Position numbers and translations under genes: made by a program
In this document: one piece after another, positions 5,128 through 44,283 of the stretch
Numbering within the stretch: position 1 is the first letter of the stretch
How the letters are laid out: each line of letters begins with the position of its first letter
Notes under the pieces: model-generated
Seen by the model: only the letters and a program-made list of their open reading frames with translations
What the model was told of the DNA's origin: nothing
Database searches by the model: none
Source: a virus
DNA length: 44,283 nucleotides
Virus record (IMG/VR): IMGVR_UViG_3300009421_000008
Span: 1-44,283 of that record
Strand: one strand, 5' to 3'

Positions 5128-5139
5128 TATTAACCCAGG

Positions 5140-8595: not shown

Positions 8596-11500
8596 TATGT
8601 TATCTCAATTAAAATGGAACTGGATGAAATGTTGGAAGCCGCTGCAGCACCGCTTGCGTAAACAAATACTTCTAGCAACGTTTCGCCCGTCGCGTTAGCG
8701 ATAAGATCCTGAATATTTGTTTCAGATCCAGTTCGACGAGTATTGGCGATTGGTGCGCCGTCGTACAACGCGTCAAACCTTATCTTTTGCTCGTTGCTTC
8801 CGGCACCTAGTTTTACAGTCACGTTAATGGCGCCAATTGCAGCTGATGAAGTTGTTATTGACCCATTTATTGTGGTAGTCAAAGTAACGCGCTGCCCGAC
8901 CGTCAGATTTATCGTTTTTGACAACACCTTATTGACAAAATTAGCGTGAATAGTATCACTGCTATTTATTGGTATTATTTCCCGGTACGTTACAAGTGGC
9001 GGCCCGTCTTGCCATGCTGGCGCAAGCTTTTGAGTTTTATCAGCGATTGACAACATGGGCTGAGCGAAATCTATTTGCGAAAATCCTGCACCCGGCCCAC
9101 CAATTCCTCCTTTGACTAAAGAAACTAATGCGTCAAAAGTATTGGGAGGAGCCGTAAAAAATCCGTGCATAGTTCTTGGTGTGGACCCGTCTACAGGATC
9201 TGACAAATTGCCCAACAACTTGTCTGTTCTGAATATTTCCAGACGATTACCTTCTTTGTCAAACGGGTCTATTTGCATGTAACCAGTCGAATACCGATTG
9301 GCTGATTTGAATTGGACACAATATCTGACTCCCGGCTCCAACCTAACTTTTCTGTTGTGTATGAAAAAGGTTGCCTCATCAGTTGGCGTGTCTTGTCTTA
9401 GCGTCACAGGAGCCGGCAAAGATTCTGCGACTGGGTCGCCTTGGGGTCTGACCAGTTTATTGGCCGGCGAAGAACCGGCTGAAAAAATCCTCCATCCAAT
9501 AGCATTATCTGCGAAAGAAGCGTTTTGCAATCTGTTGCCCGTAAATAAATTCCCAGATTGGTTGCTTGGTATATCTGATGAGACACTGTGAGTTACGTCC
9601 ACTTGATCTGATTTTGTTCCAACGCCGCTGTAAGCTATTGCGTAGACATTAATAAGCTGTCCGGGAACAACGGGCCTGATCAAATATTCAACCGTGTCAG
9701 CAGATACTTTTTCTCGCCTGTACGTCGTCTCGGAAGAATACTTCCACCAAATCTCAATGTAACCACCGAGTAATATGGTTGACGACGTGATTGCATCCCA
9801 AGAGCATTCTACGTGAGCGGCAACTGTACCGTCGTCCAAAACAGTGTAACTAGAAGCATTGGAATTTACTTCGAACCTCGTTATAGCAGGCACGAATCTA
9901 GGATCGGGCAGCTTAGTATTGGGCGCAGGATCCGGTGTTTTCAAATCGTCGAAAAACTCGCTGTAAATCTCTGGCGCATCTTCTTGGGCATCGACGTATA
10001 CGGCCATTTCCTCGTAAGAGAATCTAACCGAATTTACACGGAACACTTTTTCGTCAAACCCAGCGTACGGCAACGTAAATCTAAAAGTGTCAAACGGCCG
10101 CAACCTCAACGCTTTGAGACCGAACGGAAAATTACCTCTGACAGCTTGCCTAGATTTAGCCACGTGCAGTTTTGCAAGGCGCTGAGCAACAAGAGCTGAT
10201 TTAACAAAAGGAAAATTAAGCGGTTTCCTAAACGTACGGCCGTTGTCTTCCGCAACGTAAGCAAGAGCCTTATACTCAGGATAGCTATTAGACCTAAACC
10301 CAATGAGTTCGTCTATGAAAGTTCCGCGAACGGTATTGACAAGATCTACGCGCTCCATCCTAGAGCTCATCGTAATAGAGCCTTCGGCGAGATCGTTTTG
10401 ATCTAGCGACATTTCGGGCGCCATGTACTGCGACGACTTCAGAGTCCATTTCCCACCCGACCAAATAAGCCCACCTAGATTACTAGTTAGCAGCTGTTCG
10501 AGCGACGCACTAGGGGCCTCATCAGCGTAAACCATACCGTTGATGGTGAATCTGTTTTGTCCGTTATTAACGCCGTTTTCTAAAATGGGTTGTTGACTCA
10601 AATTTGCTTCGGCTGAGAAGTTGATTTCATCGATGTCTGCGCGATTGACTGAGTACCCGTAATCATGCATTAAAAAATCTGAAATAACAAGGGCCGCGTT
10701 GTCAGTTGACACGTAATTACTGTTTCTGAAATCTAAGACGTATCTGCCTTTGAGTTTTGCGGCGATGCCGGGCAATCCTGTACTGCCGAAAATATCTTGG
10801 TCAAATTCTATTCGTATGTGTATCCGAGCAACCCCATAACCTTTTTGGCTAGAGGTCCAAACGCCTGGAAAATCTTGCTCAAGTGTTACGTCTCGAAGAT
10901 TGTCACCTTCTTCGCGGCCTGTGTATTTGAATATTCTTACAAGCGGTTTACCGTCGTCGTAAACGTAGGTAATGACTAGTTTTTTGCCTTTGGCCCTATC
11001 GTTGACGAATATGATGCCTCTATCTGTGTTGATATAATCTGTGTTTCTGATAAAATGTTCGACAACCGGTGTATCTGCTTCACCATGGACTACGTAAGAC
11101 GTACTAACAGACTCGACTCGCTGGTATCTAATGGGGTCTAGTAATTCAACCTCACCACCTCTGCCCGGGCCGGTCACTTCTATTGACTTGTGCTTAAGCT
11201 CTCGCTTCCAAAATCGAGATCCTTTTTGGACAAATCCAAATTCGTCCAAACCACCAATTGATTCGTTGTCGAACAAAACATCGTCGATGCTGGTGCAAGC
11301 GTCTGATAGCGTTATAACTAAATGCAGATATTTATTGAACTCACCAGATGGTCGTATAAAAGTCAAATTGCCGCCGGCCATGGCGGTGCCATATGGTATT
11401 CTTCTAGATGCTACTGACGACGTAGTGGTAATTTCTCTGTCTTGAAGGCTGCTGTTGTAGTTAGCCCTGGCAAGTCTAGATGCGCGCCGCGAGCTAGACA

Positions 11501-11651
11501 CTCCGTAAGCTGTTGCAGCAGCTGACGCGTAAGTAGCAAAAGCGGCCTGTCCTGTAAACGAAGACGCACTCAAACCGCCTGTAAGATAAGCAACATAGAG
11601 ACCAGCTGCAGCGGTCGCCAATCCTACGAACTCATCCTTAAATTTTCCCAC
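8595..11651 (-). CDS. Host-specificity / central tail fibre protein (lambda gpJ / RcGTA g15-like)
   Basis: 1018 aa, immediately downstream of the NlpC/P60-like gene. N-terminal RRIPYGTAMAGGNLTFI and central FDTFRFTLPYAGFDEKVFRVNSVRFS segments resemble gpJ-family proteins. Confidence 0.7.
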   Translation of the reverse strand: MGKFKDEFVGLATAAAGLYVAYLTGGLSASSFTGQAAFATYASAAATAYGVSSSRRASRLARANYNSSLQDREITTTSSVASRRIPYGTAMAGGNLTFIRPSGEFNKYLHLVITLSDACTSIDDVLFDNESIGGLDEFGFVQKGSRFWKRELKHKSIEVTGPGRGGEVELLDPIRYQRVESVSTSYVVHGEADTPVVEHFIRNTDYINTDRGIIFVNDRAKGKKLVITYVYDDGKPLVRIFKYTGREEGDNLRDVTLEQDFPGVWTSSQKGYGVARIHIRIEFDQDIFGSTGLPGIAAKLKGRYVLDFRNSNYVSTDNAALVISDFLMHDYGYSVNRADIDEINFSAEANLSQQPILENGVNNGQNRFTINGMVYADEAPSASLEQLLTSNLGGLIWSGGKWTLKSSQYMAPEMSLDQNDLAEGSITMSSRMERVDLVNTVRGTFIDELIGFRSNSYPEYKALAYVAEDNGRTFRKPLNFPFVKSALVAQRLAKLHVAKSRQAVRGNFPFGLKALRLRPFDTFRFTLPYAGFDEKVFRVNSVRFSYEEMAVYVDAQEDAPEIYSEFFDDLKTPDPAPNTKLPDPRFVPAITRFEVNSNASSYTVLDDGTVAAHVECSWDAITSSTILLGGYIEIWWKYSSETTYRREKVSADTVEYLIRPVVPGQLINVYAIAYSGVGTKSDQVDVTHSVSSDIPSNQSGNLFTGNRLQNASFADNAIGWRIFSAGSSPANKLVRPQGDPVAESLPAPVTLRQDTPTDEATFFIHNRKVRLEPGVRYCVQFKSANRYSTGYMQIDPFDKEGNRLEIFRTDKLLGNLSDPVDGSTPRTMHGFFTAPPNTFDALVSLVKGGIGGPGAGFSQIDFAQPMLSIADKTQKLAPAWQDGPPLVTYREIIPINSSDTIHANFVNKVLSKTINLTVGQRVTLTTTINGSITTSSAAIGAINVTVKLGAGSNEQKIRFDALYDGAPIANTRRTGSETNIQDLIANATGETLLEVFVYASGAAAASNISSSSILIEIT

Positions 11652-12056
11652 TCAAACTCTCCAAGCTTTGGTAGCACGCGCTCTAGAAATAAAGACCAGG
11701 CCAGTTTCACCTGGGCCCGCAATTCTTGTTCCTAAGAAGACCCCCAAGGAATTTCGCCCGTCTATCTCAAGCATTGCTATGTCGCCCGTTCCTGCGTACG
11801 CGGGGTCTATTTCTTCTGCCCATTGCATAACTACCGTAATGTCATTGTCAACTTCTGCCAACCGCTGCGCCGCTTCTTTAGTGTTGGACCACGGCTCAAC
11901 TCCGATGTCTTGGTTAACACCCGTTATTGCTTTAGCGCTGCCAATGGCGAATAAAACACAGTCTTGCTTGCCGTACGCAAATGGAATGCTGCTACACTTA
12001 GCTAGATAACTGTCAAGCAGCTTAGGCCAATTAGAAAATCTCACTACTTCCTCCAA
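11652..12056 (-). CDS. Phage NlpC/P60-like tail peptidase (RcGTA g14-like)
   Basis: About 130 aa with a GKQDCVLFA Cys motif, in the position between the g13-like and J-like genes. The likely true start is GTG at 12044 (GGAGG N5 GTG, overlapping the upstream stop) rather than TTG at 12056. Confidence 0.55.
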   Translation of the reverse strand: MEEVVRFSNWPKLLDSYLAKCSSIPFAYGKQDCVLFAIGSAKAITGVNQDIGVEPWSNTKEAAQRLAEVDNDITVVMQWAEEIDPAYAGTGDIAMLEIDGRNSLGVFLGTRIAGPGETGLVFISRARATKAWRV

Positions 12057-12628
12057 AAATCAGCGGTTGGCCACTTTGTGGTTGTTACTTGATCAGCAGA
12101 CTGCGGCCCGTGTTTGAAGAAATCATCTCCCGGATATTTGTCTTGCTGGTCGGCATCATTGTAGACTGATCCATCTGGTGTAGACCACCTTGCAGCGTGC
12201 GACTCGGATGCCAATGAAACAACGGCTTGGTTGTCAGACACTTGGATTTTAGCAGTATCACAAAACCCTCTGTAAAGTTCCATGGGAGTATCGATGATCT
12301 GACCACTTTCGTCAAACAATCCAAAATAAATTGTAAGCGGCCTATCCTGTAAATTTTCGCGGAGCACAAAAGAGACCGTGGCCTCGTCCATACCGGACAA
12401 GATAACCTCAGCTCCTTCGGGGGCCAAATCATTGGTCTCTTGCAAATCATTGAGGGCAAGCAGATTACCCGCTCCTCTCCAATTAACGCCGCGAAACTCT
12501 CTGTCGGCGCCCAATGTGGTGTATCTTAGGGCAAGATCGTTATCAAGGAGAACTTCCACGGCCACAAAGGCATATAAGGTCTTGTCAGTTTCAAACGAAT
12601 CCACAATATTTTGAAGCGCGTCAAGCAT
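12044..12628 (-). CDS. Minor tail protein (RcGTA g13 / DUF2163-like position)
   Basis: Preferred start is ATG at 12628 (GGAG N7 ATG; ATGCTTGA overlap with the upstream stop). The track's TTG at 12661 is an alternative. The call rests mainly on synteny with GTA-type tail modules. Confidence 0.5.
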   Translation of the reverse strand: MLDALQNIVDSFETDKTLYAFVAVEVLLDNDLALRYTTLGADREFRGVNWRGAGNLLALNDLQETNDLAPEGAEVILSGMDEATVSFVLRENLQDRPLTIYFGLFDESGQIIDTPMELYRGFCDTAKIQVSDNQAVVSLASESHAARWSTPDGSVYNDADQQDKYPGDDFFKHGPQSADQVTTTKWPTADFWRK

Positions 12629-15157: not shown

Positions 15158-15820
15158 TCTTAATCACCTTTCCAAAAAACTCGGCCGGGTCCACTGAATC
15201 TTCTTCGTCTACTTCCACGCTGTCAAATGGAGAGTAATCTTTCCAACCTAGGTTTTCACTAGACGTAGAAATTTTACCTGCCATGTTGTGTATCGTAGCT
15301 GCGATGTTAGCCAAATTGACATCGCTTCTTCGATCGCCCCACGGGTTTCTAGCATACTCGAGCATCCACATAACATACTCATCGGCGCTGATCGATTCCA
15401 AAAGTTCATCAACGCTGCGCCCAAGAGTCCTTGCGAGCATCATTGCGAATTGCCAATCAGCGCTATCTACTTTTTTTGAGCTCTGGTTGCACTCCCTGTA
15501 GCATCCATGGCTTTGCCAGCAAGTTCCAAAAACCGGTCGTGTGGAACGTGCTCGTTTGTTGACCATTCTCGCCAGTCTAAAGCCGACATAAGTTCTTCGC
15601 CGTCTTCATCTAGAACTGTCACCGCCAACGTATGAAAAATAGGGTCTATCTCTTGATCTTTCTTCGACCTAGAGGAAAGATTAAAGCGTTGGCCGGCATC
15701 CAGAGACTTGACGAAGACAATGCATTCTTCTTCGGAATTCTCTGGAACCAGACCAGGTACTACAACTTCTATAACCCGCCTTTTGAACGCAGCGGTTTCT
15801 CCCCGTTTTATTTTTCTCAT
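15144..15820 (-). CDS. Tail assembly chaperone -1 frameshift fusion (gpGT-like, about 225 aa)
   Basis: Slipping at A_AAA_AAG moves translation into the 15144..15566 frame, giving ...AQKK|VDSADWQFAMMLARTLG..., which matches the track translation of that ORF. Confidence 0.75.
15467..15820 (-). CDS. Tail assembly chaperone (gpG-like, zero-frame product)
   Basis: 117 aa between the major tail protein and the tape measure. It ends ...AQKK-TAG immediately after a slippery heptamer. Confidence 0.8.
   Translation of the reverse strand: MRKIKRGETAAFKRRVIEVVVPGLVPENSEEECIVFVKSLDAGQRFNLSSRSKKDQEIDPIFHTLAVTVLDEDGEELMSALDWREWSTNEHVPHDRFLELAGKAMDATGSATRAQKK
15470..15476 (-). promoter_or_regulatory. Programmed -1 ribosomal frameshift slippery heptamer A_AAA_AAG
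   Basis: The minus strand reads GCT CAA AAA AAG TAG. The heptamer is in the correct X_XXY_YYZ phase, one codon before the zero-frame stop. Confidence 0.75.
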
Positions 15821-15823
15821 GGG

Positions 15824-16468
15824 TTAGTTCTCGTAGAAAGTCGGATTTCCAAACATGGTGATCGTAGCGCTAGATACGACTTTATCCCCGGCTTGTCCAG
15901 TTGGGAGCCCCGGCGCTGATGCATACCCAGTAAACACCACCCGTGTCCCGTTACGAAACTGGAACATCATACCGGCTAGCTGCTGGGTGTCGGACAACTT
16001 CTTCAGCGCCTTTGTACCGGCGTCCGTTGGGTCCCACAGGTTTTCGAAAGTGTAGCTGATGGCAGATGGGTTGCCCGGAATTTGCTTCTCTTGATCGTCG
16101 TGAATTGTGGTCACGTCAATAAAGTTGGGCTCACCGCCCGACGCGTTCAGACTTGTAGCAGTAGTCAAATCGGTATCAAGATCGACCTTGAAAACATTGC
16201 CACTTTGGAATGTTCCGTATGAAGCCGAATCTTCTCCTTCGAATGTAACATCATCACCAGCAACCGCGCTAATTCTAACGAGGCGGCCGTTGAGCTCATT
16301 CATGCCGAGACTTTCAATTCGGACATAATCGTTGACGGCCAGCCCATGACCAGTTTCCACAGTGGCAACTGCAGGATCTGCCTTGGTGACTGCTGAAATT
16401 GCAATGGCGGCCCCAACGGCCGATTGGATTTTTACGGCGACTTTCGTCCAGGTTGTGACCTTTGCCAT
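15824..16468 (-). CDS. Major tail (tube) protein
   Basis: 214 aa, positioned between the tail-completion proteins and the chaperones, with a strong-looking AGGAG-type leader. Confidence 0.75.
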   Translation of the reverse strand: MAKVTTWTKVAVKIQSAVGAAIAISAVTKADPAVATVETGHGLAVNDYVRIESLGMNELNGRLVRISAVAGDDVTFEGEDSASYGTFQSGNVFKVDLDTDLTTATSLNASGGEPNFIDVTTIHDDQEKQIPGNPSAISYTFENLWDPTDAGTKALKKLSDTQQLAGMMFQFRNGTRVVFTGYASAPGLPTGQAGDKVVSSATITMFGNPTFYEN

Positions 16469-16480
16469 GACTCTAAACTC

Positions 16481-16852
16481 CTAGTTAAATGAATGCCAAT
16501 ATTCCAGTCCTAGAATTGACAACTCTACGTCTTCGTCTAAGTCTGTAATTTTTTCGCTAGTTTGTGAAACAATCTGAAAATCAGAACTACCCAGCTCGTT
16601 GTAAACAACCCCTGCCAATTCTTCTGCCTCTGATCTTTTGTCAGCGAAGCAATGGATTTCAAAATAAACTTTCTCAGCTACAGGGGCCGATGTATGTATG
16701 GTTCTAACAAATTCTGTTGAAATTCTAGCGTACACAATGCATGGAAGCGTGGCCTTTTTTGGCGACGCGTCTGGCCAAACTCTATTGGCCACAATCCCAG
16801 AAATGCCGGTATTGGTTACCAATTGTGAATGTAGAATTTCTTCAGAAGTCAT
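16481..16852 (-). CDS. Tail completion / tail terminator-like protein (DUF3168-like)
   Basis: 123 aa. Motif VWPDASPKKATLPCIVY, and position upstream of the major tail protein. Confidence 0.55.
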   Translation of the reverse strand: MTSEEILHSQLVTNTGISGIVANRVWPDASPKKATLPCIVYARISTEFVRTIHTSAPVAEKVYFEIHCFADKRSEAEELAGVVYNELGSSDFQIVSQTSEKITDLDEDVELSILGLEYWHSFN

Positions 16853-17376
16853 CTTATTCTGCTCGATGCTAGAGCAAGCTCGCTTGAAAGCTTGTCATTA
16901 AAGGCGGACAGCGCACGCCCACGTGAGGCAGCAAAAGCTCGGCTCAGGAATTTATTTGGCGGCACTTCTCTTGCGCCCGATCTTCTCAATCTAGACCTTT
17001 GTAGCTCTCTTGATCTGCGACCGCCTTGCAATTTTTGGCCGGGGCCCCTGACAATGTGACCACGAATAACAAACCGCGCGTAATAAGCGTCGTTATTTTT
17101 GCCGCGTTTACCGACTGATCTGTACCTAGCGCCCGATTTTATTTTGACTGACGCGGCTTTTTCCGTGCCTACCGCGTTTCTGACGCGGACCGATTTAACA
17201 TATATGCCTCGTCTCAATCTACCAGAATCGACTGGAGCGGCCGCTCGCGCGGCGTCACGAAAAACTCTTGCACCGGCTGCTACTGCTCTAGCAACTACAC
17301 GTCTGCGCGTTACCGTATCTAATCTCCGCAACTGTCTTCGGAAATCAGGTATATTGGTTCTTATCGTGGCAGTCAT
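16849..17376 (-). CDS. HK97 gp10-family head-tail joining protein
   Basis: 175 aa. The AVAAGARVFRDAARAAAPVDSGRLRRGIY pattern is typical of the HK97 gp10 family. Overlapping start and stop codons on both sides. Confidence 0.65.
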   Translation of the reverse strand: MTATIRTNIPDFRRQLRRLDTVTRRRVVARAVAAGARVFRDAARAAAPVDSGRLRRGIYVKSVRVRNAVGTEKAASVKIKSGARYRSVGKRGKNNDAYYARFVIRGHIVRGPGQKLQGGRRSRELQRSRLRRSGAREVPPNKFLSRAFAASRGRALSAFNDKLSSELALASSRIR

Positions 17377-17696
17377 GACGCGTCCGCAAAACCTAGTATC
17401 ACCAGCTCTGTTCTTCCGGCGTCAGTATCGATAACTTCAGAAATGTTATAGTCCTTGCCACCGTATTCGATCACCATGTCTGGCACAATGTTTTTAATAT
17501 GGCGCATCTTAAACTCAGTCGTTGCCATAGCTTTATCTTGCCTAAATCTTTCTTGCTCAGTCCCGGACAGCGGCGACACGCGGGCCCAGGTTCTGATATG
17601 CGTAGACCAAACGTACTGCTCCGACCCGTAAGAATCTTTTCCAGTAGAGGTTCTTTTCTTGATGCTGATTCTCTGCATCAGAGGTCCGGATCTCAT
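17373..17696 (-). CDS. Head closure / head-tail adaptor (SPP1 gp16-like family)
   Basis: 107 aa. MRSGPLMQRISIKKRT...WARVSPLSGTEQ matches the usual head-tail adaptor pattern. Confidence 0.65.
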   Translation of the reverse strand: MRSGPLMQRISIKKRTSTGKDSYGSEQYVWSTHIRTWARVSPLSGTEQERFRQDKAMATTEFKMRHIKNIVPDMVIEYGGKDYNISEVIDTDAGRTELVILGFADAS

Positions 17697-18247
17697 AGCG
17701 TAAACCTTCTAGTGCTATCAAGGAGGCCATCAGCAAATGGAACCGGATCAGAAGACAAGTTGTTATCAGTCTCACGGTTGATGTACAGGGCCGCGGCTCT
17801 CATAAGTACCCAGCTATCCATATCTTCTGGTGGAGTTGAATAGCCGGCAGTAAACGTAATGACGACAGGATCTGCCGCGTCTTTCGCAAGCTCTGGAAGC
17901 TCAAAACCAGATCTGAGAACTAGGTTGGCACCATACGACTTCTTGATAAACACAAACGCAGCGCTATCCAGCGCGGAAGTTGTCAGCACAGAACCAACAA
18001 GATGCTTGTACTCAATACTAACCAAAGAAACAAACGGCGCGGCCGCAATTACGATTGGATCAGACCAAGCTTGAAGTTCTTTGGTCAGATTCTTCTGTGA
18101 AAAAATTCTGCTCGTGTCGTGCTCGCATTGCCGGATTGCCGCAGCCAAATAGCGGTTGAGTTCATTGTCAAGATCGGCTTGGATAGAAGCATCCGCCGGA
18201 TCGTCAACGAGTTTCAGTTGGTACTTAAGCTGCGACAATGTTGCCAT
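17693..18247 (-). CDS. gp6-like head-tail connector protein
   Basis: 184 aa. The N-terminal LSQLKYQLKL...AAIRQCEHDTSRIF helix pattern and synteny after the capsid genes support the call. Confidence 0.6.
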   Translation of the reverse strand: MATLSQLKYQLKLVDDPADASIQADLDNELNRYLAAAIRQCEHDTSRIFSQKNLTKELQAWSDPIVIAAAPFVSLVSIEYKHLVGSVLTTSALDSAAFVFIKKSYGANLVLRSGFELPELAKDAADPVVITFTAGYSTPPEDMDSWVLMRAAALYINRETDNNLSSDPVPFADGLLDSTRRFTL

Positions 18248-23634: not shown

Positions 23635-24189
23635 TTAGGCCAAAAGTCCAATGTTTGGGTCTTTAGGTGGCTCATTCTCGTCCACTGGTGGAGTTTCGCC
23701 TTTGATTTGTGATTGCATGTTTCTAGCATCTCGCTCGTACGCGCGTTTTCTAGTTTTTTCAAACGCCCTGCCGCTTTGTGTTGGCTGAATTAGCAAAGTG
23801 CGCATCAATCTGCGGGCGCGCTCGGACAATTCTGAAATTACAGCAATTCTGGGATTTGGTTCGCGGCCGTCGATCTTAATTGTGATGGACCCCTCAAGAT
23901 CTAGTATGCGCTCTTCTTCTTGTATTCTATAAACGCACTTTACGAGATCTTCGGCCAAGAAAAAATCTTGTTCGTTAAGCCATTCGTCTTTGGCTCGAGA
24001 ATTCATGACCATTTCCCAGGCGGGCAAATGATGTGGCCTCAAATCTGTAAAAGCTGGCGGCGAGATCGGGCCCGCTGCAGCATCTTCAGCCGCTTTCAAA
24101 AGCCCTTCGACTGTGTTAACTATCGGCTTTTTCCTTGGTCCGACGGCGCCTTTTCTATTCGCCACAATCACCTCACAATCAAAACCCAA
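23635..24189 (-). CDS. terS: Terminase small subunit (P27-family-like)
   Basis: 184 aa directly upstream of TerL. The N-terminal basic segment NRKGAVGPRKKP is typical of P27-type TerS proteins that pair with an HNH endonuclease. The start codon is uncertain (TTG at 24189). Confidence 0.65.
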   Translation of the reverse strand: MGFDCEVIVANRKGAVGPRKKPIVNTVEGLLKAAEDAAAGPISPPAFTDLRPHHLPAWEMVMNSRAKDEWLNEQDFFLAEDLVKCVYRIQEEERILDLEGSITIKIDGREPNPRIAVISELSERARRLMRTLLIQPTQSGRAFEKTRKRAYERDARNMQSQIKGETPPVDENEPPKDPNIGLLA

Positions 24190-24445: not shown

Positions 24446-24790
24446 TTACTTGTTCCATGGGTGCTCCGGGTCGTTGGGTACGCCATCAGCGTTGCAACCT
24501 GCTCTGCGTATCCATCCTCTCTCTTTAATACTCTTGTTAGCGTGATGTCGCTTACACAACGATTGAAAGTTAGACTCGTCGTCCTTGCCACCCTTGTGTA
24601 TTGGTACCACGTGGTCCACCTCTTCAGCAGCAACTAAATAACCTTGCTTCTTACAGTGTACGCACAGTGAGTGCTCACGTAGCCACCGTGCTCTGCGCTT
24701 GACTGCTCTGCTACCTGTGAGGCGTGCGTGTACCATGCAGCGATTATACTCTTGCGCTCGTAGTGGGGGCGCTCTATGGGCCGTAATCAT
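24446..24790 (-). CDS. HNH endonuclease (packaging-associated)
   Basis: CVHCKKQG...VDHVVPIHKGGKDDESNFQSLCKRHHANK. Located just upstream of TerS. ATG 24790 is preferred over TTG 24802, which lies inside the inverted repeat. Confidence 0.85.
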   Translation of the reverse strand: MITAHRAPPLRAQEYNRCMVHARLTGSRAVKRRARWLREHSLCVHCKKQGYLVAAEEVDHVVPIHKGGKDDESNFQSLCKRHHANKSIKERGWIRRAGCNADGVPNDPEHPWNK

Positions 24791-24797
24791 GCAGGCC

Positions 24798-24820
24798 CAC
24801 AAAGTTGCCTGTTGCCTTTA
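24798..24820. repeat. Left arm of a perfect 23-bp inverted repeat (cacaaagttgcctgttgccttta)
   Basis: It is the exact reverse complement of 24913..24935. The arms flank a 92-bp AT-rich spacer. Confidence 0.9.
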
Positions 24821-27676: not shown

Positions 27677-28159
27677 ATGGAAAAATCTGCTTATCTGAGT
27701 GCCGACGGTAAATATAGATACAGTCTTTGGCGAAGGTGGGGAGAGACTCACAGAAATGTAATGTTTATAGGATTGAATCCTTCTACAGCCGATGCGCAAA
27801 ATGACGACCCTACTATCAGGCGTTGTGTAGGGTACGCAAAAGAATGGGGGTTCGATGCTTTGTCAATGACAAATCTTTATGCCTACAGATCGCCGTTTCC
27901 AGAAGGATTGTACGGCCCAGAAGATCCTGTTGGCTTCCATAATGATTTTGTGTTGAGAACTCAAGCTAAAAGAGCCGACCTTATTATTGCTGCTTGGGGC
28001 TCAATGGCAAAAATGTTTGGCAATAGACATGAACAGGTGGCTTCTATGATACCAAATTTACACTGTCTTAAATTGAATAAAGACGGAGCACCGGCGCACC
28101 CCCTGTACCTAAAAAAAGATTTAACGCCGTTTTTGTTTGCGGCTCCGGTTAGAGGGTGA
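27677..28159 (+). CDS. DUF1643-family protein
   Basis: YRYSLWRRW...MFIGLNPSTADAQNDDPTIRRCVGYAKEWGFDALSMTNLYAYRS matches my recollection of the DUF1643 signature. Confidence 0.65.
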   Translation: MEKSAYLSADGKYRYSLWRRWGETHRNVMFIGLNPSTADAQNDDPTIRRCVGYAKEWGFDALSMTNLYAYRSPFPEGLYGPEDPVGFHNDFVLRTQAKRADLIIAAWGSMAKMFGNRHEQVASMIPNLHCLKLNKDGAPAHPLYLKKDLTPFLFAAPVRG

Positions 28160-36503: not shown

Positions 36504-36920
36504 ATGACTATCAAATCATACGCAAAACGTGACTCGGCTACCGCAGCTCTTCGTAAGATGGGCCTTGGAAGATCTTCGTACGACCAACTGCTTAATTTAG
36601 ACTCTGACGATCGTTGGTACTTCAACGCCGACGAGGCTGCCGCGTTGCTCAAGTCTTTTGATGATCAAATCGCGCGAATTACTAAATCAGACGTTGACAA
36701 AGCAATCATCAAACCAAAGCCAACCAAAAAATCCAAGCCGGCTAAGAAGGCTTCGACTAACGGCAAAGAAACTGTGTCTAGCCGCATTCGCTCGTTGATC
36801 AACGAAGGACACAGCAACTCAGAAATCTGGGAAATTGTGCAGCCCGAGTATGATCTTGACGACAAAAAGCGCAGCTACCCAGCATGGTATCGCAGCCAAA
36901 TGAAACGCGCGGCCGAATAA
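36504..36920 (+). CDS. Hypothetical protein with a Lys-rich linker and a C-terminal domain shared with the 37240..37923 product
   Basis: AGGAG N9 ATG. KPKPTKKSKPAKKAS linker, then SRIRSLINEGHSNSEIWEIVQPEYDLDDKKRSYPAWYRSQMKR. Confidence 0.6.
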   Translation: MTIKSYAKRDSATAALRKMGLGRSSYDQLLNLDSDDRWYFNADEAAALLKSFDDQIARITKSDVDKAIIKPKPTKKSKPAKKASTNGKETVSSRIRSLINEGHSNSEIWEIVQPEYDLDDKKRSYPAWYRSQMKRAAE

Positions 36921-37024: not shown

Positions 37025-37274
37025 AATCATCGATGAATCCTACGCTGGGCTAGAAATCCATCAACTCTACATCGATGGCGGTAGAGCTGTAGCCGCTATT
37101 CGTAGACCGGGCCAACCGGTTGAATTATCTTGGCAAGTGTATGGCCCGCAATTCTGGCCAGATGCCCAGAAAATTATCCAAGGATTGGTACAGCTGTCTT
37201 TCATAGCTGATCAAATGCATTCAACAGGGAGAGTTTCAAATGCCGGCAAGAAAACAAGAGCCAAAAGAAAGTAG
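37014..37274 (+). CDS. Hypothetical protein (86 aa)
   Basis: GGGAGA N7 ATG at 37014. The track's TTG at 36972 is an alternative. Confidence 0.45.
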   Translation: MTIEIIDESYAGLEIHQLYIDGGRAVAAIRRPGQPVELSWQVYGPQFWPDAQKIIQGLVQLSFIADQMHSTGRVSNAGKKTRAKRK

Positions 37275-37923
37275 TTTGTCTCCGGGCGTGTTCTCAGATA
37301 AAAAACGGCATACCTGCATACTGTGCTCGTCGTCATCTGGCAAAGCGCAGTACATTCCGCTCTGCATAGCGGACGGCATGGTTGTGCGTGAAGTATCTGT
37401 AGATGAATTCCAAAACACTTGGAAAGCAATACCTGAGTATCCTCTTGATCGCGCAGCTGATTTGTATATCCAATACGCGCTAGACATTGGCGCTGAATCA
37501 GATGCCATCGACTATCTTTCAAAGATGACTAAGAACCAGAAAGAAGCGATTGCTAAGGTCAAAGCCAATGGCCCACGCGATGTCAAGCAAGTCATGCGTA
37601 AAAAATCAGGCCCCATGAGTCCAGCCGGTATGACAGAAGAAAAGGCAAGAGCTAAACCTTCAGGTCCACCACCAGTTTTTAAGGAGAACAAAAAGCAAGC
37701 GTCTAAGAAAGCGCCGGCTAAAAAGGCCGTAGGACCCAAGAAGCCGTCAGCAGCATCACGGTTTAGAGAGTTAATTATGGAGGGCAAGCTTAGCGATCAG
37801 CAGATCTTTGCTGCCGTCCAAAAGGAATTCGGCTTGGATGATAAGCGATTCACTTACGTTAAGTGGTACCGCGACAAGCTGCGCAAAGATGGATTGAACC
37901 CACCAGAAGCCAAGGAGAAATAG
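37240..37923 (+). CDS. Hypothetical protein with a Lys-rich linker and a C-terminal domain paralogous to the 36504..36920 product
   Basis: GGGAGAG N7 ATG. KKQASKKAPAKKAVGPKKPS linker, then SRFRELIMEGKLSDQQIFAAVQKEFGLDDKRFTYVKWYRDKLRK. Confidence 0.6.
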   Translation: MPARKQEPKESSLSPGVFSDKKRHTCILCSSSSGKAQYIPLCIADGMVVREVSVDEFQNTWKAIPEYPLDRAADLYIQYALDIGAESDAIDYLSKMTKNQKEAIAKVKANGPRDVKQVMRKKSGPMSPAGMTEEKARAKPSGPPPVFKENKKQASKKAPAKKAVGPKKPSAASRFRELIMEGKLSDQQIFAAVQKEFGLDDKRFTYVKWYRDKLRKDGLNPPEAKEK

Positions 37924-37924
37924 C

Positions 37925-38692
37925 ATGCCTAAAACACGGGAGATTTTAAGAGATGATAGGGATTACGATACAACACAGCTTCGAGAAGCCGGACACGGAC
38001 GTACACTTCACCGCGACTATTCAGCTCACTTCTGGCGATGGTCTTTCGCCCGACGATTTATCACACCTAAGGACAATGTGCTCGAAATTGGTTGCGGAGA
38101 AGACCGCCCGTTATCTAAAATCCTTACAGGTGGAGCTGCCGCAAGCGTCGGCCGGTATACTGGCGTGGACATCAATAAACTTAAGCCATCTCAGTCTCAG
38201 CGTCTCACCTTCCACGGGGAGTTTAATTTCGTCACAGAACACAAGAAGCTCTTGACTGGCGAGAACGCAGATGGGTTTGACGTAGTCGTGCATCTTGAAG
38301 TGATTGAGCACATGAAGGTGGAGCACGGCCGCAAGCTGCTTCGAAATGCATTCGCATGTTTGAAGCCGGGCGGAACGATGCTCATGTCTACCCCGTGCTA
38401 CGACGGTAAGCGGCATGCTGCTAACCATATTCATGAGTACACTGTTCCTGAGCTTCAGAAGGCTACTGAGAAGGCTGGCTTCGAAGTTGTGAAACGCTAC
38501 GGTGCATTCATGGACATCAAGCACATCGGCAAGAAAGACCGCAGCAACAATGAGTGTACCGATGCTGCCATTACCGAGGTGTACCAAGCGCTCAGGGAGT
38601 ATTACGACAACGATGCACTGAGCTGCTTCTTTGCTCCGCTGTATCCTGACAACGCCCGCAACAACTTGTGGGTTTGCCGCAAACCAAATTAA
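37925..38692 (+). CDS. Class I SAM-dependent methyltransferase (substrate unknown)
   Basis: Motif I VLEIGCGEDRP, then VVVHLEVIEHM and LKPGGTMLMSTP. I found no DPPY/NPPY or PC/ENV DNA-methyltransferase motifs. Confidence 0.7.
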   Translation: MPKTREILRDDRDYDTTQLREAGHGRTLHRDYSAHFWRWSFARRFITPKDNVLEIGCGEDRPLSKILTGGAAASVGRYTGVDINKLKPSQSQRLTFHGEFNFVTEHKKLLTGENADGFDVVVHLEVIEHMKVEHGRKLLRNAFACLKPGGTMLMSTPCYDGKRHAANHIHEYTVPELQKATEKAGFEVVKRYGAFMDIKHIGKKDRSNNECTDAAITEVYQALREYYDNDALSCFFAPLYPDNARNNLWVCRKPN

Positions 38693-38702
38693 GGAGAAAT
38701 CA

Positions 38703-39134
38703 ATGAGAAAGAATTTTGATGACGTGCGTGAATTGCACGAGAGTTTTGCTATTGCCGTCAACGACACACCGCATCTGTTGTGTCGTCGGTTAGCCCAAGA
38801 GCGGATAGATTTCATTGGTGAAGAACTCGATGAATTGTACGATGCCATGAGTGCTGACGACATCAACGAAATAGCCGATGCGCTGATCGACATTGTGGTC
38901 GTTGCTATGGGCACTGCGGCTATGATGGGCCTCCCGTGGCAAGAACTGTGGGACGACGTGCATCGCGCCAACATGGCTAAGGAGCGAGGAGTAGGGAAGC
39001 GAGGCAATGCAGTCGACCTCATCAAGCCTGAGGGCTGGGTGCCGCCTCACACACGAGATATTCTGCAAGAAGCGGGGTATAACTTTGACAATCCACCGGA
39101 GCCTCATGATGACAGACGCACAAAGATTTCCTGA
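38703..39134 (+). CDS. MazG-like all-alpha nucleoside triphosphate pyrophosphohydrolase
   Basis: AAGGAG N7 ATG. IDFIGEELDELYDA...EIADALIDIVVVAMG gives the EExxE...D metal-binding helices. Confidence 0.65.
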   Translation: MRKNFDDVRELHESFAIAVNDTPHLLCRRLAQERIDFIGEELDELYDAMSADDINEIADALIDIVVVAMGTAAMMGLPWQELWDDVHRANMAKERGVGKRGNAVDLIKPEGWVPPHTRDILQEAGYNFDNPPEPHDDRRTKIS

Positions 39135-39642
39135 GAAGCAAATCGTAATCTTTGAAGGTTGCGATTGCACTGGCAAGACCACCGCTGCCAAGGCCTACGC
39201 GGCAGCGACTGGGGCCGATTACATCCACAACGGGCCGTATTTGGGCAAGACCGGGTCTGAGCTGTTTAACGTTTATTTTAATCAGATGGAATTCTCTAGA
39301 CTCAACGACATTCCAGTTGTCATTGATCGTTGTTGGGTCAGTGAGAATATTTACGGACGGGTGCTGCGCGGAGGATCTAGGTTATCTCCTGACCAGACAA
39401 CTGAGTTACTCGAAATGGCAGAGCATTTAGACGTTGAATTCATCGTCTGCGACCCTGGGTTAGACCAAGTTAAAAACACTTGGTTATCTCGCCGACAAAC
39501 TGAGCTGGTAGTGGATACTGAGAACCTTGAGAAGGTTTGGAATTATTACTCTGCGCTTGGTAATGCCAGGGCAAAGATTTACGACTGGCTCGAGTTCAAG
39601 GACTGCTCGATGGATGACCTTATCAACTTCATAGAGGATTAA
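39106..39642 (+). CDS. Thymidylate-kinase-like dNMP kinase
   Basis: P-loop IVIFEGCDCTGKTT and the downstream VVIDR motif, as in the TMK family. The start is at ATG 39106 or 39109. Confidence 0.6.
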   Translation: MMTDAQRFPEKQIVIFEGCDCTGKTTAAKAYAAATGADYIHNGPYLGKTGSELFNVYFNQMEFSRLNDIPVVIDRCWVSENIYGRVLRGGSRLSPDQTTELLEMAEHLDVEFIVCDPGLDQVKNTWLSRRQTELVVDTENLEKVWNYYSALGNARAKIYDWLEFKDCSMDDLINFIED

Positions 39643-39645
39643 AAC

Positions 39646-40449
39646 ATGTTTGACACAAATAGAAGCTACATCGAAACTGCGGACGCCGTCATTGCGTACG
39701 GAGGCGGGGTTAACCCACGGGGGCAAGGCACTGTGGAAGTTATTGGTCATCAGACAGCGGTAAATATGAGGAAGCCTATTATCACGCTGCCAAGTCGTGC
39801 GCTTAACTACCAATTCATGTTTGCAGAGGCCGCTTGGATTCTGAGAGGTGATGACAGTCTAGCGCCTTTGGTTAAACACATCAACAGGATGAAAGACTTC
39901 AGTGACGACGGTGAAACGCTGTCTGGCGCTTACGGCCCACGTTACGTCGATCAACGCGACTATGTTTTGGATGCCTTACTGAGTGATCCTACAACTCGGC
40001 AGGCTGGTTTGACATTGTGGAAACCCAGTCCTACGCCAAGTAAAGATATACCATGCACCCTTGCACTGTGGTTCTTAATCCGAGAAGGCCACTTGTGGGT
40101 ACATGCTTTCATGCGGAGTAGCGACGTTTGGCTGGGGTTGCCGTACGACATCTTCAGCTTCAGTATGATAGGCCATGACATTTGTGCACGGTATAACTTA
40201 AACAACGGCGGCGAAACCATCAAGCCGGGCGGTTTAATTATCTCTGCCGCGTCGACCCACGTGTATGACAGAGATGCCGACCTCGTTAAGAACATGGTCA
40301 AAGAGTCTACGGAGTATAGGAATAGGCCACTACAGTTGGAAACACCCAGCGCGTTGCACACAGACCCGATGTTCCTGATGCACTGGCTTGAGGACACATC
40401 CAATGATCCTGAAGCCGCCAGAAACTGCTGGAAAGTTGATGGGATCTAG
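39646..40449 (+). CDS. ThyA-family pyrimidine-C5 transferase with Asp at the Asn177 position; predicted dCMP hydroxymethylase or dCMP methyltransferase rather than thymidylate synthase
   Basis: It aligns to E. coli ThyA: PRGQGT / DRTGTGT; AEAAWIL / HELLWFL; DIPCTLALWF / LAPCHAFFQF (Cys137, 40054-40056); MRSSDVWLGLPYDIFSF / YQRSCDVFLGLPFNIASY (Asp168, 40147-40149). The Cys-to-Asp spacing is 31 residues, the same as C146-N177. Confidence 0.65.
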   Translation: MFDTNRSYIETADAVIAYGGGVNPRGQGTVEVIGHQTAVNMRKPIITLPSRALNYQFMFAEAAWILRGDDSLAPLVKHINRMKDFSDDGETLSGAYGPRYVDQRDYVLDALLSDPTTRQAGLTLWKPSPTPSKDIPCTLALWFLIREGHLWVHAFMRSSDVWLGLPYDIFSFSMIGHDICARYNLNNGGETIKPGGLIISAASTHVYDRDADLVKNMVKESTEYRNRPLQLETPSALHTDPMFLMHWLEDTSNDPEAARNCWKVDGI

Positions 40450-40936
40450 AATCTCAACCTACGCATGGTTATCTGAGATGGCACAGATAACTGCCAAGAG
40501 ATCTACGTGTGCACGCCGTCAGGTCGGTTGTGTTCTTGTGGACTGGCATAATAAGGTTCTATCTACGGGGTACAACGGCACGCCGGTGGGTTTCAAGAAC
40601 TGCTCAGAGGCTCGTGCACGAGACGGAGGTGGTCTGGTGTGCTCTGCCAGAAACTCTCCTTCTGGAGAAGATCTTGGTGGGTGCCACGCCGTGCATGCGG
40701 AACAGAACGCGCTGCTCCAGTGCCCGGATGTTAACACAATCAAGACCTGCTTTGTCACGACCAGCCCGTGTGTCCACTGTGTGAAGATGCTACTCAACAC
40801 ATCTTGTGATCAAATAGTTTTCTTAGAACCTTACGCTCATGAAGCAACTTCTCGAGAGCTGTGGTTGAGCTCTCCTATAGAGAGACACTGGAAGTTCTGG
40901 GCACTAGAAGGATACGAGCTGTCTGGCAGAAACTAA
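40439..40936 (+). CDS. dCMP deaminase (cytidine/deoxycytidylate deaminase zinc-binding family)
   Basis: AKRSTCARRQVGCVLVD, HAEQNAL and PCVHCVKML. Start at ATG 40439, overlapping the upstream gene's end. Confidence 0.8.
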   Translation: MGSRISTYAWLSEMAQITAKRSTCARRQVGCVLVDWHNKVLSTGYNGTPVGFKNCSEARARDGGGLVCSARNSPSGEDLGGCHAVHAEQNALLQCPDVNTIKTCFVTTSPCVHCVKMLLNTSCDQIVFLEPYAHEATSRELWLSSPIERHWKFWALEGYELSGRN

Positions 40937-40975: not shown

Positions 40976-41012
40976 AGGCCCTCTACGTTAGCGCGTCTGA
41001 GGGCCTCTTTTT
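40976..41012 (+). terminator. Rho-independent terminator ending the plus-strand arm
   Basis: aggccctc-N15-gagggcct followed by cttttta, 40 nt after the deaminase stop. Confidence 0.7.
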
Positions 41013-41020
41013 ATTCCGCA

Positions 41021-41117: not shown

Positions 41118-41495
41118 TCAAGGATCTCGCTTGGGCCAAGGGTCTCTCTTGCCGCCCGAATATTGTCTAGCCAGCCCTTTGTCAATCATCACAGCCGACA
41201 GCTCTCGCCCGTCTTTAAGTGTGATTGTGGCAATGAACCTTCCGTACTTGCCAGTTTTATCCTTGAACGTCTGGATATGGTCGATGCCGTCAGACGTAAG
41301 GAGGCGGGCGTAGTCCGTAGCCTCATTGTAGAACATGTCGCCGCGCTCAGGAGTGTCGTGGTTTGCACACCTGAATTGGGCCTTGCGCAGCACATCCATC
41401 CCCAGATCCATCAGAGCATTGAACGTGTCGCCGTCTACCCAGCGCGTGATTTCAACGTGCCAATAGATAAACTTCATGTTTTCTTGGCCGCTCAT
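41118..41495 (-). CDS. Staphylococcal-nuclease-like (SNase/thermonuclease) protein
   Basis: WVDGDTF, RCANHDTPE, GKYGRFIATI and IDKGLA match the SNase core motifs. ATGA overlap with the upstream gene at 41495. Confidence 0.7.
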   Translation of the reverse strand: MSGQENMKFIYWHVEITRWVDGDTFNALMDLGMDVLRKAQFRCANHDTPERGDMFYNEATDYARLLTSDGIDHIQTFKDKTGKYGRFIATITLKDGRELSAVMIDKGLARQYSGGKRDPWPKRDP

Positions 41496-41767
41496 TTCTG
41501 TAACCACCTTGGCCATTTGGCTAACCAGCCGAACGCGTCAACTGCGGCGAAATATACTTTGGCTACAGCTCTCCACGCCCGGTCTCTTACTGCTGCGCAC
41601 AAGCAGCATTCTTTGAACTCATGATCAGATAGCGCTCTGGCTTTAGTTGGATTTTTGTAGTCCTCGTCGTGCTGCTTACAACAGGCGTTGAACTTTTGGC
41701 TCAACCATTTCCGTAACCATTTTGGCCACCCCTGCGGCCCACAGTAATAAGGTGGTTTTATGCCCAT
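41492..41767 (-). CDS. Small protein with secreted-phospholipase-A2-like motifs
   Basis: 91 aa. YYCGPQG resembles the Ca-loop YCGxGG. ACCKQHDEDY matches the catalytic CCxxHDxxY (His-Asp at 41666-41671). Further Cys residues at ECCLC. The ATG is 1 nt after the o-spanin stop. Confidence 0.5.
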   Translation of the reverse strand: MGIKPPYYCGPQGWPKWLRKWLSQKFNACCKQHDEDYKNPTKARALSDHEFKECCLCAAVRDRAWRAVAKVYFAAVDAFGWLAKWPRWLQK

Positions 41768-44160: not shown

Positions 44161-44283
44161 GACTCTTCCCAAGCTGACTGAAGGTCAGCGTGAAAATCGA
44201 AGCCAACTAGCAGATTGTGGGTCTGCTGATTCTCAGTTGATGCTCTATAAGAATCTGCCGCAGTCTGACCAACAAGCCTGGCA
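44161..44283. repeat. Terminal direct repeat, copy 2 (identical to 1..123)
   Basis: Same 123-nt string as 1..123. It lies inside an open reading frame, so it is not an intergenic terminal repeat. Confidence 0.95.

Follow-up and report, generated by a model that had tools for sequence, protein, structure and literature searches.

A conserved phage cassette with a ThyA homologue and a Hen1-like methyltransferase: a candidate route to modified cytosine in virion DNA

The stretch of viral DNA analysed here, hereafter called the window, is the IMG/VR record IMGVR_UViG_3300009421_000008 over its full length of 44,283 nucleotides, and the system in question is a module of five plus-strand genes located at 37925-40936. 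These genes encode an S-adenosylmethionine (SAM) methyltransferase, a MazG-type nucleoside triphosphate (NTP) pyrophosphohydrolase, a P-loop kinase of the thymidylate kinase (TMK) or deoxynucleoside kinase (dNK) type, an enzyme of the ThyA (thymidylate synthase) family and a zinc deaminase of the deoxycytidine monophosphate (dCMP) deaminase family (Table 1). No two neighbouring genes are separated by more than 10 nt, and some overlap. The ATG of the methyltransferase gene occurs 1 nt past the stop codon of the upstream open reading frame (ORF) and 8 nt after an AAGGAG; a gap of 10 nt, with another AAGGAG before the start, precedes the MazG-type gene, the end of which is overlapped by the kinase start over 26 nt. 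The kinase and ThyA-like genes are separated by 3 nt, with GAGGA before the ThyA-like start, and the deaminase gene overlaps the end of the ThyA-like gene by 11 nt, or by 47 nt with its alternative start. Shine-Dalgarno sequences of the AAGGAG/GAGGA type thus occur upstream of four of the five starts, and the overlaps and spacing suggest that the five genes are translationally coupled. A first-pass annotation, made from the letters alone, had placed five tightly packed genes here with exact end coordinates, and its five family assignments are borne out by Pfam and PHROG matches, the kinase by PHROG 761 with Pfam remaining below threshold.

Table 1. Position and supporting matches of the five module genes and of the elements that flank them in the window.
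Feature	Position	Strand	Evidence
Upstream 227-aa protein	37240-37923	+	Lys/Pro-rich linker + small C-terminal domain (..SRFRELIxxG..WYRxKL)
SAM methyltransferase, Hen1/UbiG-like	37925-38692	+	Methyltransf_23, E 4.9e-18
MazG-type all-alpha NTP pyrophosphohydrolase	38703-39134	+	PF01503 PRA-PH, E 1.9e-16; PHROG 671 'nucleotide pyrophosphohydrolase', E 2.2e-26
TMK/dNK-type P-loop kinase	39109-39642 (alternative start 39106)	+	PHROG 761 'thymidylate kinase', E 4e-13
ThyA-family enzyme	39646-40449	+	PF00303 Thymidylat_synt, E 4.5e-23
dCMP-deaminase family zinc deaminase	40439-40936 (alternative start 40403)	+	PF00383 dCMP_cyt_deam_1, E 2.5e-17; PHROG 174, E 3.5e-34
Terminator-like GC-rich hairpin + U-run	40976-41015	+	Centroid -19.5 kcal/mol, z = -2.56 vs shuffles

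The ThyA homologue scores 82 bits against PF00303, for a cut-off of 24, and its best PDB match is the cytidine monophosphate (CMP) hydroxymethylase MilA (E 1.1e-21), above all true thymidylate synthases. It was aligned with ThyA from E. coli, gp42 from phage T4, MilA, the experimentally verified 5-methyl-dCMP synthase from phage Xp12 and gp58, the deoxyuridine monophosphate (dUMP) hydroxymethylase from phage M6; its identity amounts to 27% with the Xp12 enzyme and 21% with T4 gp42. According to the numbering of the E. coli enzyme, used hereafter, the catalytic Cys (C146, Cys137 in the window) and the residues R166, S167, Y94, H207 and Y209 are all conserved, D169 is kept as Asp160, and three positions are replaced, L143 by Asp134, H147 by Thr138 and N177 by Asp168. 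The N177D replacement lies in a GLPYD motif and L143D in an SKDIPC motif, with the Asp three residues before the Cys. The residue at N177 is an Asn in enzymes acting on dUMP and an Asp in those acting on dCMP (PMC8670742), whereas an acidic residue at L143 correlates with a hydroxymethyl product and admits water, and an Asn at D169 marks the 5-hydroxy-dCMP synthases of the RB69 gp48 / DLP3 gp80 type (PMC13326640). D143 is common to the window enzyme, T4 gp42, MilA and M6 gp58, the last of which pairs it with N177, and the Xp12 methylase possesses N143 and P147. Since C146/D143/T147/D169/D177 is the pattern of gp42 and MilA, the window enzyme is predicted to be a dCMP 5-hydroxymethylase, a prediction which rests on the published correlation; L143D and N177D, together with the kept D169, favour a 5-hydroxymethyl product over a 5-methyl or 5-hydroxy one. 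A reading as 5-hydroxy-dCMP synthase was ruled out, the RSSD motif of the protein keeping the Asp at D169. Both the (T/S)KDxPCT and the PYD motifs, the latter holding the Asp of N177D, recur in 75/75 ThyA homologues linked to the methyltransferase.

The three other nucleotide enzymes of the module are less informative with respect to their substrates. The MazG-type protein (60.7 bits against PF01503, cut-off 21.3) contains the metal-binding motifs EExxE and ExxD, read in the sequence as GEELDEL and EIADALID, and is presumed from its context to be a deoxycytidine triphosphatase (dCTPase). The kinase, the weakest of the five family assignments, possesses a P-loop (GCDCTGKTT) and a TMK-like DRxxxSxxxY motif (DRCWVSENIY), and the TMK models of Pfam and NCBIfam score it below threshold, with the P-loop as the only matching part. 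Its best PDB match, both by sequence and by fold, is YorR from phage SPbeta, followed by deoxynucleoside kinases and TMKs, and these fold matches are indicative only, because the AlphaFold2 model, built with only two homologues, is poor, with a predicted local distance difference test (pLDDT) of 55.8. It is presumed to be a mononucleotide kinase acting on 5-hydroxymethyl-dCMP. Its identification as a 5-hydroxymethyluracil DNA kinase (5-HMUDK) was rejected, since only 17 residues of the P-loop align with M6 gp54 (E 0.033); no aGPT-PPlase-like gene was found in the window genome. The deaminase (63 bits against PF00383, cut-off 25) exhibits the zinc motifs HAE (VHAEQNA) and PCxxC (SPCVHC). Methylation-selective cytidine deaminases (mSCD), which prefer 5-methylcytosine (5mC) or 5-hydroxymethylcytosine (5hmC), represent a polyphyletic trait devoid of any sequence rule, and such selectivity is frequent among deaminases whose genes stand in cis with a D177 ThyA homologue. 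The window deaminase is encoded in such a position.

The methyltransferase, a protein of 255 residues, has Hen1 and UbiG as its top NCBIfam matches, both far below their cut-offs, and the profile of its family finds its best PDB matches in the bacterial Hen1 structures 3JWI/3JWG and in human HENMT1. A motif EVIEH is identical to that of Hen1 and a motif STP..H..E(Y/W)T is similar, E125/E128/H129 and N167-H168 being aligned with EVIEH and DH of CthHen1. In HEN1 enzymes, the four Mg/Mn ligands are provided by E-x-x-E-H plus a distal His (PMC10781085), and residues E125, E128, H129 and H168 are putative metal ligands because they align with these. They are invariant in 22 methyltransferase homologues, in which ~90 positions are invariant overall, and some homologues possess Lys-rich C-terminal tails. 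The amino-DNA methyltransferase motif (D/N/S)PP(Y/F/W) is absent from the protein, and its AlphaFold2 model (pLDDT 70.7), with a disordered N-terminus, indicates no substrate. Between the window and other loci, the identity reaches 70-78% for the methyltransferase, compared to 60-64% for the DNA polymerase, 51-58% for the SNF2 helicase, 39-51% for the ThyA homologue and 34-40% for the kinase, so that no other gene of the module is as well conserved as that of the methyltransferase, which is also the best-conserved protein of the region.

The module as a whole recurs in other phages. Relatives were found through protein searches only; with megablast, the region matched none of 50,697 phage records. 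An identical arrangement of the five genes is present in Stenotrophomonas phage AXL3, in Pseudoxanthomonas phage PW916, in a siphovirus metagenome-assembled genome (MAG) from Manatee Spring and on many metagenome contigs. In a podovirus MAG (L099, MW202510.1, 4929-8171) the order is also kept, directly upstream of the DNA polymerase gene and with a methyltransferase only 31% identical, which suggests that the module predates the phage lineages or passes from one to another. Among the IMG/VR loci, 70 were informative, the sequence that follows the methyltransferase homologue being 3.5 kb or longer; a MazG-type gene and a ThyA-like gene follow in 70/70 of them, and a deaminase gene in 65/70, frequencies at which the arrangement is not due to chance. 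A TMK-like kinase is encoded in 47/70 loci, in 38 of them with an extra C-terminal domain which the window kinase lacks. This domain, present in most relatives, comprises ~150 residues with GE...PF...HPQ motifs and a faint match to the uracil-DNA glycosylase (UDG) superfamily (E 0.026), whose fold is of the base-flipping type, e.g., in L003 5019-6002 (gp29 of AXL3), L009 9375-10232, L011 8027-8944 and L001 ~5080-6000. In a few related cassettes, the deaminase gene is followed by a gene of the PF00850 family of histone deacetylases and acetylpolyamine amidohydrolases (E 4e-21), located at 10850-11722 in L007 and 9003-9869 in L008 and also present in L020, L023, L035 and L082, which may point to yet another form of the modification. 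Seven phage-sized contigs with the full cassette (L100-L106) have been binned to GTDB representative MAGs of unrelated phyla, labelled Lentisphaera, Thiobacillus, Chromatiales, Saccharibacteria, Flavobacterium and Nitrospira. They are almost certainly mis-binned phage genomes, and such contigs account for the 'Nitrospira' best matches reported for AXL3.

The methyltransferase family itself is confined in practice to phage contigs. Among the 50,697 phage records, only AXL3, PW916 and two MAGs carry a member, and the metagenome protein collection contains 696 clusters. The methyltransferase is an obligate, hyper-conserved member of the module, beyond a mere neighbour. Directly observed are the genes and their order, the residues of the active sites, the degree of conservation and the joint occurrence of the genes. 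Within the 150 best cluster representatives at 50% identity, 25 are fused to a domain resembling C5-cytosine DNA methylases (PF00145), in either domain order. These C5 domains have the xPPC motif IV, and the position of Asn304 in M.HhaI is occupied by Arg (11 cases) or Lys (8 cases), and never by Asn. An Arg or Lys at this position is the signature of CmoX (R350), a cytosine-C5 carboxymethyltransferase, and of the engineered M.MpeI N374K. Some of the fusion contigs are without a ThyA cassette in the stretch examined. Locus L016 combines a fusion with a ThyA(D143/D177)-deaminase cassette (10001-12307, 15354-17923) and ThyX, and a fusion together with such a cassette also occurs in L084, L088-L090 and L096. 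No TET/JBP dioxygenase was recorded near the fusions in the loci examined, where divergent ones could escape detection. In every context inspected, the methyltransferase family stands beside, or is fused to, an enzyme placing a carbon substituent on C5 of cytosine.

Experimental data within the clade come from AXL3. Among 37 restriction enzymes tried on its DNA, only two, with the A/T-only sites AATT and TTAA, were able to cut, and the 35 enzymes with G/C in their site, KpnI and Eam1105I included, all failed (PMC7504290). These digests are the sole wet-lab evidence available for the clade. KpnI and AhdI, which we take to be an isoschizomer of Eam1105I, digest the fully 5mC-substituted DNA of Xp12 to completion and partly cut that of the Xp12-like phage AXL1. 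Fully 5hmC-substituted DNA resists ~82% of enzymes, glucosyl-5hmC DNA ~94% and 5-hydroxymethyldeoxyuridine (5hmdU) DNA ~8%; compared with these values, resistance to 35/35 enzymes hints weakly at a modification that exceeds 5mC or bare 5hmC in bulk. ThyX is encoded by AXL3 as well (PMC7504290), so that its ThyA homologue is not needed for the production of deoxythymidine monophosphate (dTMP). The publications describing AXL3 and PW916 read the cassette as thymidylate synthesis and name no modified base. In addition, the Pfam families most enriched on modified-cytosine contigs in the MetaGPA screen were Thymidylat_synt, dCMP_cyt_deam_1, PRA-PH, DNA_pol_A, PDDEXK_1 and SNF2_N, and the gene set of the window matches these. 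Generic Methyltransf_* families are not among the enriched ones in the MetaGPA table, an absence which carries no information, bacteria being rich in such families.

Taken together, the cassette would represent a pre-replicative module for the replacement of cytosine followed by a post-synthetic capping step, a scheme to which we give somewhat better than even credence as a whole. In the pathway that we infer, with regard to its substrates, products, timing and methyltransferase target, the MazG-type pyrophosphohydrolase would convert dCTP to dCMP, at once starving the polymerase of dCTP and feeding the ThyA homologue, which would use methylene-tetrahydrofolate to produce 5-hydroxymethyl-dCMP. 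The TMK-like kinase would then yield the diphosphate and a host nucleoside diphosphate kinase the triphosphate, which the family A polymerase of the phage would incorporate, resulting in virion DNA with a C5-modified cytosine instead of cytosine. The deaminase would supply dUMP to the host thymidylate synthase, as Cd does in T4, or alternatively would deaminate part of the modified nucleotide pool in the manner of mSCD-type enzymes. The Hen1-like and probably metal-dependent methyltransferase would act last, most plausibly as an O-methyltransferase of the 5-hydroxymethyl group on DNA. The parts of this scheme differ in strength. It is quite probable that a C5-modified cytosine is made by this route, and, with somewhat less assurance, we consider it likely that the modification starts as 5-hydroxymethyl rather than 5-methyl. 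An action of the methyltransferase on the modified cytosine is a plausible but doubtful proposition, and 5-methoxymethylcytosine as the specific product is a tentative and, in this precise form, rather unlikely one. The same reserve applies to the general proposal that the methyltransferase is a DNA-base O-methyltransferase capping C5 substituents, which would convert 5hmC to 5-methoxymethylcytosine in the window, in AXL3 and PW916 and in hundreds of uncultivated relatives, and would methyl-esterify 5-carboxymethylcytosine in the CmoX-like fusions; it is offered as a speculative lead rather than as the expected outcome.

Several observations weigh against this scheme. The methyltransferase resembles Hen1 only weakly (E 5e-5; a TIGR04074 score of 33 bits against a cut-off of 340), and its AlphaFold2 model yields only generic class I matches with Foldseek (template modelling score ~0.45). 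The fusion partners resemble carboxymethyl-transferases and would thus offer a carboxylate instead of an alcohol, and the loci which contain both a fusion and a ThyA cassette are unaccounted for by so simple a pathway. In 22/70 loci the place of the kinase is taken by an unrelated protein of 125 residues. The rule for L143 is a correlation, the Xp12 methylase itself being polar (Asn) at this position. Finally, 5 of the 7 deaminase-linked D177 ThyA homologues assayed in the sole functional screen gave 5-methyl-dCMP, a base rate which favours 5mC. As for the 125-residue protein (e.g., L007 9193-9570), it has no Pfam match.

Among the rival explanations, the one that survives best concerns the methyltransferase and leaves the other genes in their proposed roles. 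The enzyme would not act on a DNA base, being either a small-molecule enzyme that is merely co-transcribed or a Hen1-like 2'-O-methyltransferase whose substrate is an RNA 3' end or a ribonucleotide, such as a primer or a defence signal. Such a function is an unlikely one, on a par with the capping proposal itself. It agrees with the profile matches, the best of which are RNA 3'-end 2'-O-methyltransferases whose four metal ligands are kept, with the lack of the amino-DNA methyltransferase motif and with the generic result of the fold search. However, neither Pnkp nor a cellular RNA-repair neighbour was ever seen beside the methyltransferase, all contexts being phage nucleotide cassettes; its co-occurrence with the ThyA cassette in 70/70 loci, its repeated fusions in both orders to domains resembling cytosine-C5 DNA transferases and the Lys-rich tails of some homologues also argue for a DNA target. 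With respect to Hen1/HENMT1, the methyltransferase shares the E-x-x-E-H and distal (D/N)-H ligands and the STP motif, but it differs by the lack of RNA-binding domains and of a Pnkp partner, its restriction to phages and its location beside cytosine-C5 enzymes.

An improbable alternative, of the Xp12 type, assumes that the ThyA homologue makes 5-methyl-dCMP and the DNA contains 5mC, with the deaminase turning 5-methyl-dC nucleotides into thymidylate and the methyltransferase doing something else. D177 alone predicts only the use of dCMP, the screen mentioned above points to 5-methyl products, Xp12 displays the same neighbourhood of deaminase, ThyA-like and hydrolase genes, and a conversion of 5-methyl-dCMP to dTMP would be useful to a phage which, like that of the window, is without its own thymidylate synthase. 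Against it stand D143 and T147 in the window enzyme in place of N143 and P147, the higher score of MilA over the thymidylate synthases, the low identity to the Xp12 enzyme and the lack in the window genome of a dihydrofolate reductase (DHFR) to recycle the dihydrofolate that a methylase yields. The failure of KpnI and Eam1105I, cutters of 5mC DNA, on AXL3 DNA speaks in the same direction.

A modification on the thymine side appears highly improbable. In this case 5-hydroxymethyl-dCMP would be deaminated to 5-hydroxymethyl-dUMP, and 5-hydroxymethyluracil (5-hmU) or a derivative would replace some of the thymine, a modified cytosine being optional. Several phage deaminases encoded beside D177 ThyA homologues did give 5hmdU in vivo from a 5-hydroxymethyldeoxycytidine pool, and the deaminase gene of the window overlaps the ThyA-like gene. 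Yet enzymes recognising AATT and TTAA do cut the DNA of AXL3, in which the block is confined to sites with G/C, 5hmdU blocks but a small fraction of enzymes, and no homologue of the 5-hmU DNA kinase or of aGPT-PPlase was found in the window, the likeness of the kinase to M6 gp54 being limited to the P-loop. A diversion to 5-hmU is possible as a side flux, yet it leaves the G/C-specific block unexplained. Lastly, an ordinary supply of thymidylate through dCMP deaminase, thymidylate synthase and thymidylate kinase in a phage with canonical DNA, although compatible with the family-level annotations and with the reading of these genes in the AXL3 and PW916 papers, can be dismissed almost entirely in view of the Asp replacing Asn177 in all 75 homologues, the presence of ThyX in AXL3 along with DNA resisting all G/C-site enzymes tested, and the enrichment of this gene set on modified-cytosine contigs.

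Compared with known systems, the proposed cytosine-replacement module follows the logic of T4, in which dCTP is removed (gp56), dCMP hydroxymethylated (gp42), the product phosphorylated (gp1) and dCMP deaminated (Cd). The first-pass annotation had described a T4-style pathway, which stands as a functional parallel but not as homology: the MazG/PRA-PH and TMK/dNK-like enzymes appear to be only analogues of the gp56-type dCTPase and of the gp1-like kinase, and only the ThyA homologue, which shares C146, D143, T147, D169 and D177 with gp42, and the deaminase belong to the families of their T4 counterparts. Its claim of a cytosine-type ThyA active site agrees with the Asp replacing Asn177 of E. 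coli, and that of an absence of recognised glycosyltransferases with the complete window genome, where none was found. Its proposal that cytosine is replaced by 5-hmC, 5-mC or a derivative gains support from D177 and from the resistance of AXL3 DNA, and D143 and D169 favour the 5-hydroxymethyl route. The window further differs from T4 in the compact operon of a 44-kb siphovirus, the added SAM methyltransferase and the lack of a glucosyltransferase.

The closest described systems are, rather than T4, those of Xp12/PaMx74 and the MetaGPA neighbourhoods that combine a deaminase with ThyA(D177), PRA-PH and PolA. As in the window, a deaminase there stands beside a D177 ThyA homologue, an NTP pyrophosphohydrolase and PolA (10.1101/2024.12.05.627091; PMC8670742), and such neighbourhoods occur in siphoviruses of Xanthomonadaceae and in metaviromes. 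Xp12 differs in having N143/P147 and a DHFR beside the methylase and in making 5mC, whereas the window has D143/T147 without DHFR and its operon adds a methyltransferase and a kinase; the DNA of AXL3 is also more resistant to restriction than the 5mC DNA of Xp12. MilA (PDB 5B6D/5JNH) and the window enzyme both have Asp at positions 143 and 177 and the same I-A-x-(F/Y) in place of the W80 region. MilA acts on the ribonucleotide CMP in the bacterial biosynthesis of the antibiotic mildiomycin, whereas the deaminase, the deoxynucleoside monophosphate (dNMP)-kinase-like enzyme and the DNA polymerase around the window gene point to dCMP as substrate. The 5-carboxymethylcytosine system CmoX/CmoA/CmoY of Synechococcus phage S-B43 (PMC12783734) has its CmoX signature in the fusion partners of the relatives of the window methyltransferase; the window itself has no CmoX-like gene and its methyltransferase is not CmoA-like, and an esterifying or ether-forming role of the latter is what we would propose by comparison. 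A function as a maker of carboxy-SAM for CmoX-like domains was rejected, given the lack of similarity to CmoA and the lack of CmoX in the window. Neither the NCBIfam matches of the methyltransferase at E <= 0.01 nor its PDB profile matches at E <= 10 included a CmoA entry, the libraries of both searches presumably containing CmoA models and structures. Precedents for the capping of ThyA-made 5hmC are offered by the 5hmC carbamoyltransferase of MetaGPA (PMC8670742) and by the T-even glucosyltransferases, although their chemistry and enzyme families differ. In the literature searched, which covers few subscription journals, neither a report of a methyl ether of 5hmC in phage DNA nor a description of this methyltransferase, of its linkage to ThyA(D143/D177) or of its CmoX-like fusions was found.

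The window is a metagenome contig (ENA ERZ511480, NODE_957) of which positions 1-123 and 44161-44283 are identical; this terminal overlap of 123 bp denotes a complete, circularly assembled phage genome of ~44.2 kb (about 44.16 kb). The minus strand encodes the terminase, portal, ClpP-type protease, major head protein, non-contractile major tail protein, tape measure, distal tail protein and fibres, a layout of the siphovirus type. The rightward region at 25.1-40.9 kb of the plus strand contains the genes of a primase-helicase, a DUF1643 protein, the family A DNA polymerase, a PD-(D/E)XK exonuclease and an SNF2 helicase, with the five-gene module last, so that the earlier description of a 44-kb siphovirus with its own family A polymerase is in keeping with the gene content. 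Across the complete genome no second thymidylate synthase, ThyX, DHFR, TET-like enzyme or glycosyltransferase was found. The terminator-like hairpin listed in Table 1 is read as closing the rightward operon, and it faces a convergent minus-strand terminator-like site of the lysis genes at 41054-41029. Upstream of the module, the C-terminal domain of the 227-residue protein is paralogous to that of the ORF at 36504-36920 (43% over 49 residues, E 4e-11), both having the motif SRxRxLIxxG...WYRxxL, and neither ORF receives a function from Pfam or PHROG. A similar motif can be recognised by eye between the C5-transferase and methyltransferase domains of the fusion proteins P0127 and P0128. The 227-residue protein may belong to the module, possibly as an accessory, adaptor or DNA-binding partner of the methyltransferase.

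Other genes of the window deserve mention. The DUF1643 protein is encoded at 27677-28159 (E 5e-43; PHROG 3230), between the genes of the primase-helicase and the polymerase. The convergent minus-strand block opens, next to the lysis genes, with the gene of a staphylococcal-nuclease-like endonuclease (41118-41516, minus strand; PHROG 452, E 2e-22), an enzyme that could break down host DNA lacking the modification. An HNH endonuclease gene (24446-24802, minus strand; PF01844, E 1.4e-9) adjoins that of the small terminase subunit (23635-24189), a layout characteristic of HNH-assisted cos packaging. The circular junction is spanned by a gene for a fibre or depolymerase, with a Chondroitinas_B match in the public gene calls.

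The replacement of cytosine by means of a ThyA homologue is textbook knowledge for the T-even phages, and recent work shows it to be frequent in metaviromes. What the literature searched does not contain is the methyltransferase as the invariant and best-conserved member of one large clade of cassettes, and the repeated fusion of the same family to CmoX-like cytosine-C5 DNA transferases. This double association represents a concrete and testable lead to a new hypermodification of cytosine, which may explain the resistance of AXL3 DNA to every G/C-site enzyme tested. If true, 5-methoxymethylcytosine would be a base not yet described in nature, and an enzyme capping 5hmC or 5-carboxymethylcytosine (5cxmC) would be of use for epigenetic sequencing chemistry, where the carbamoyltransferase and the related deaminases have already proved helpful. 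The cassette is present in two phages in culture, AXL3 and PW916.

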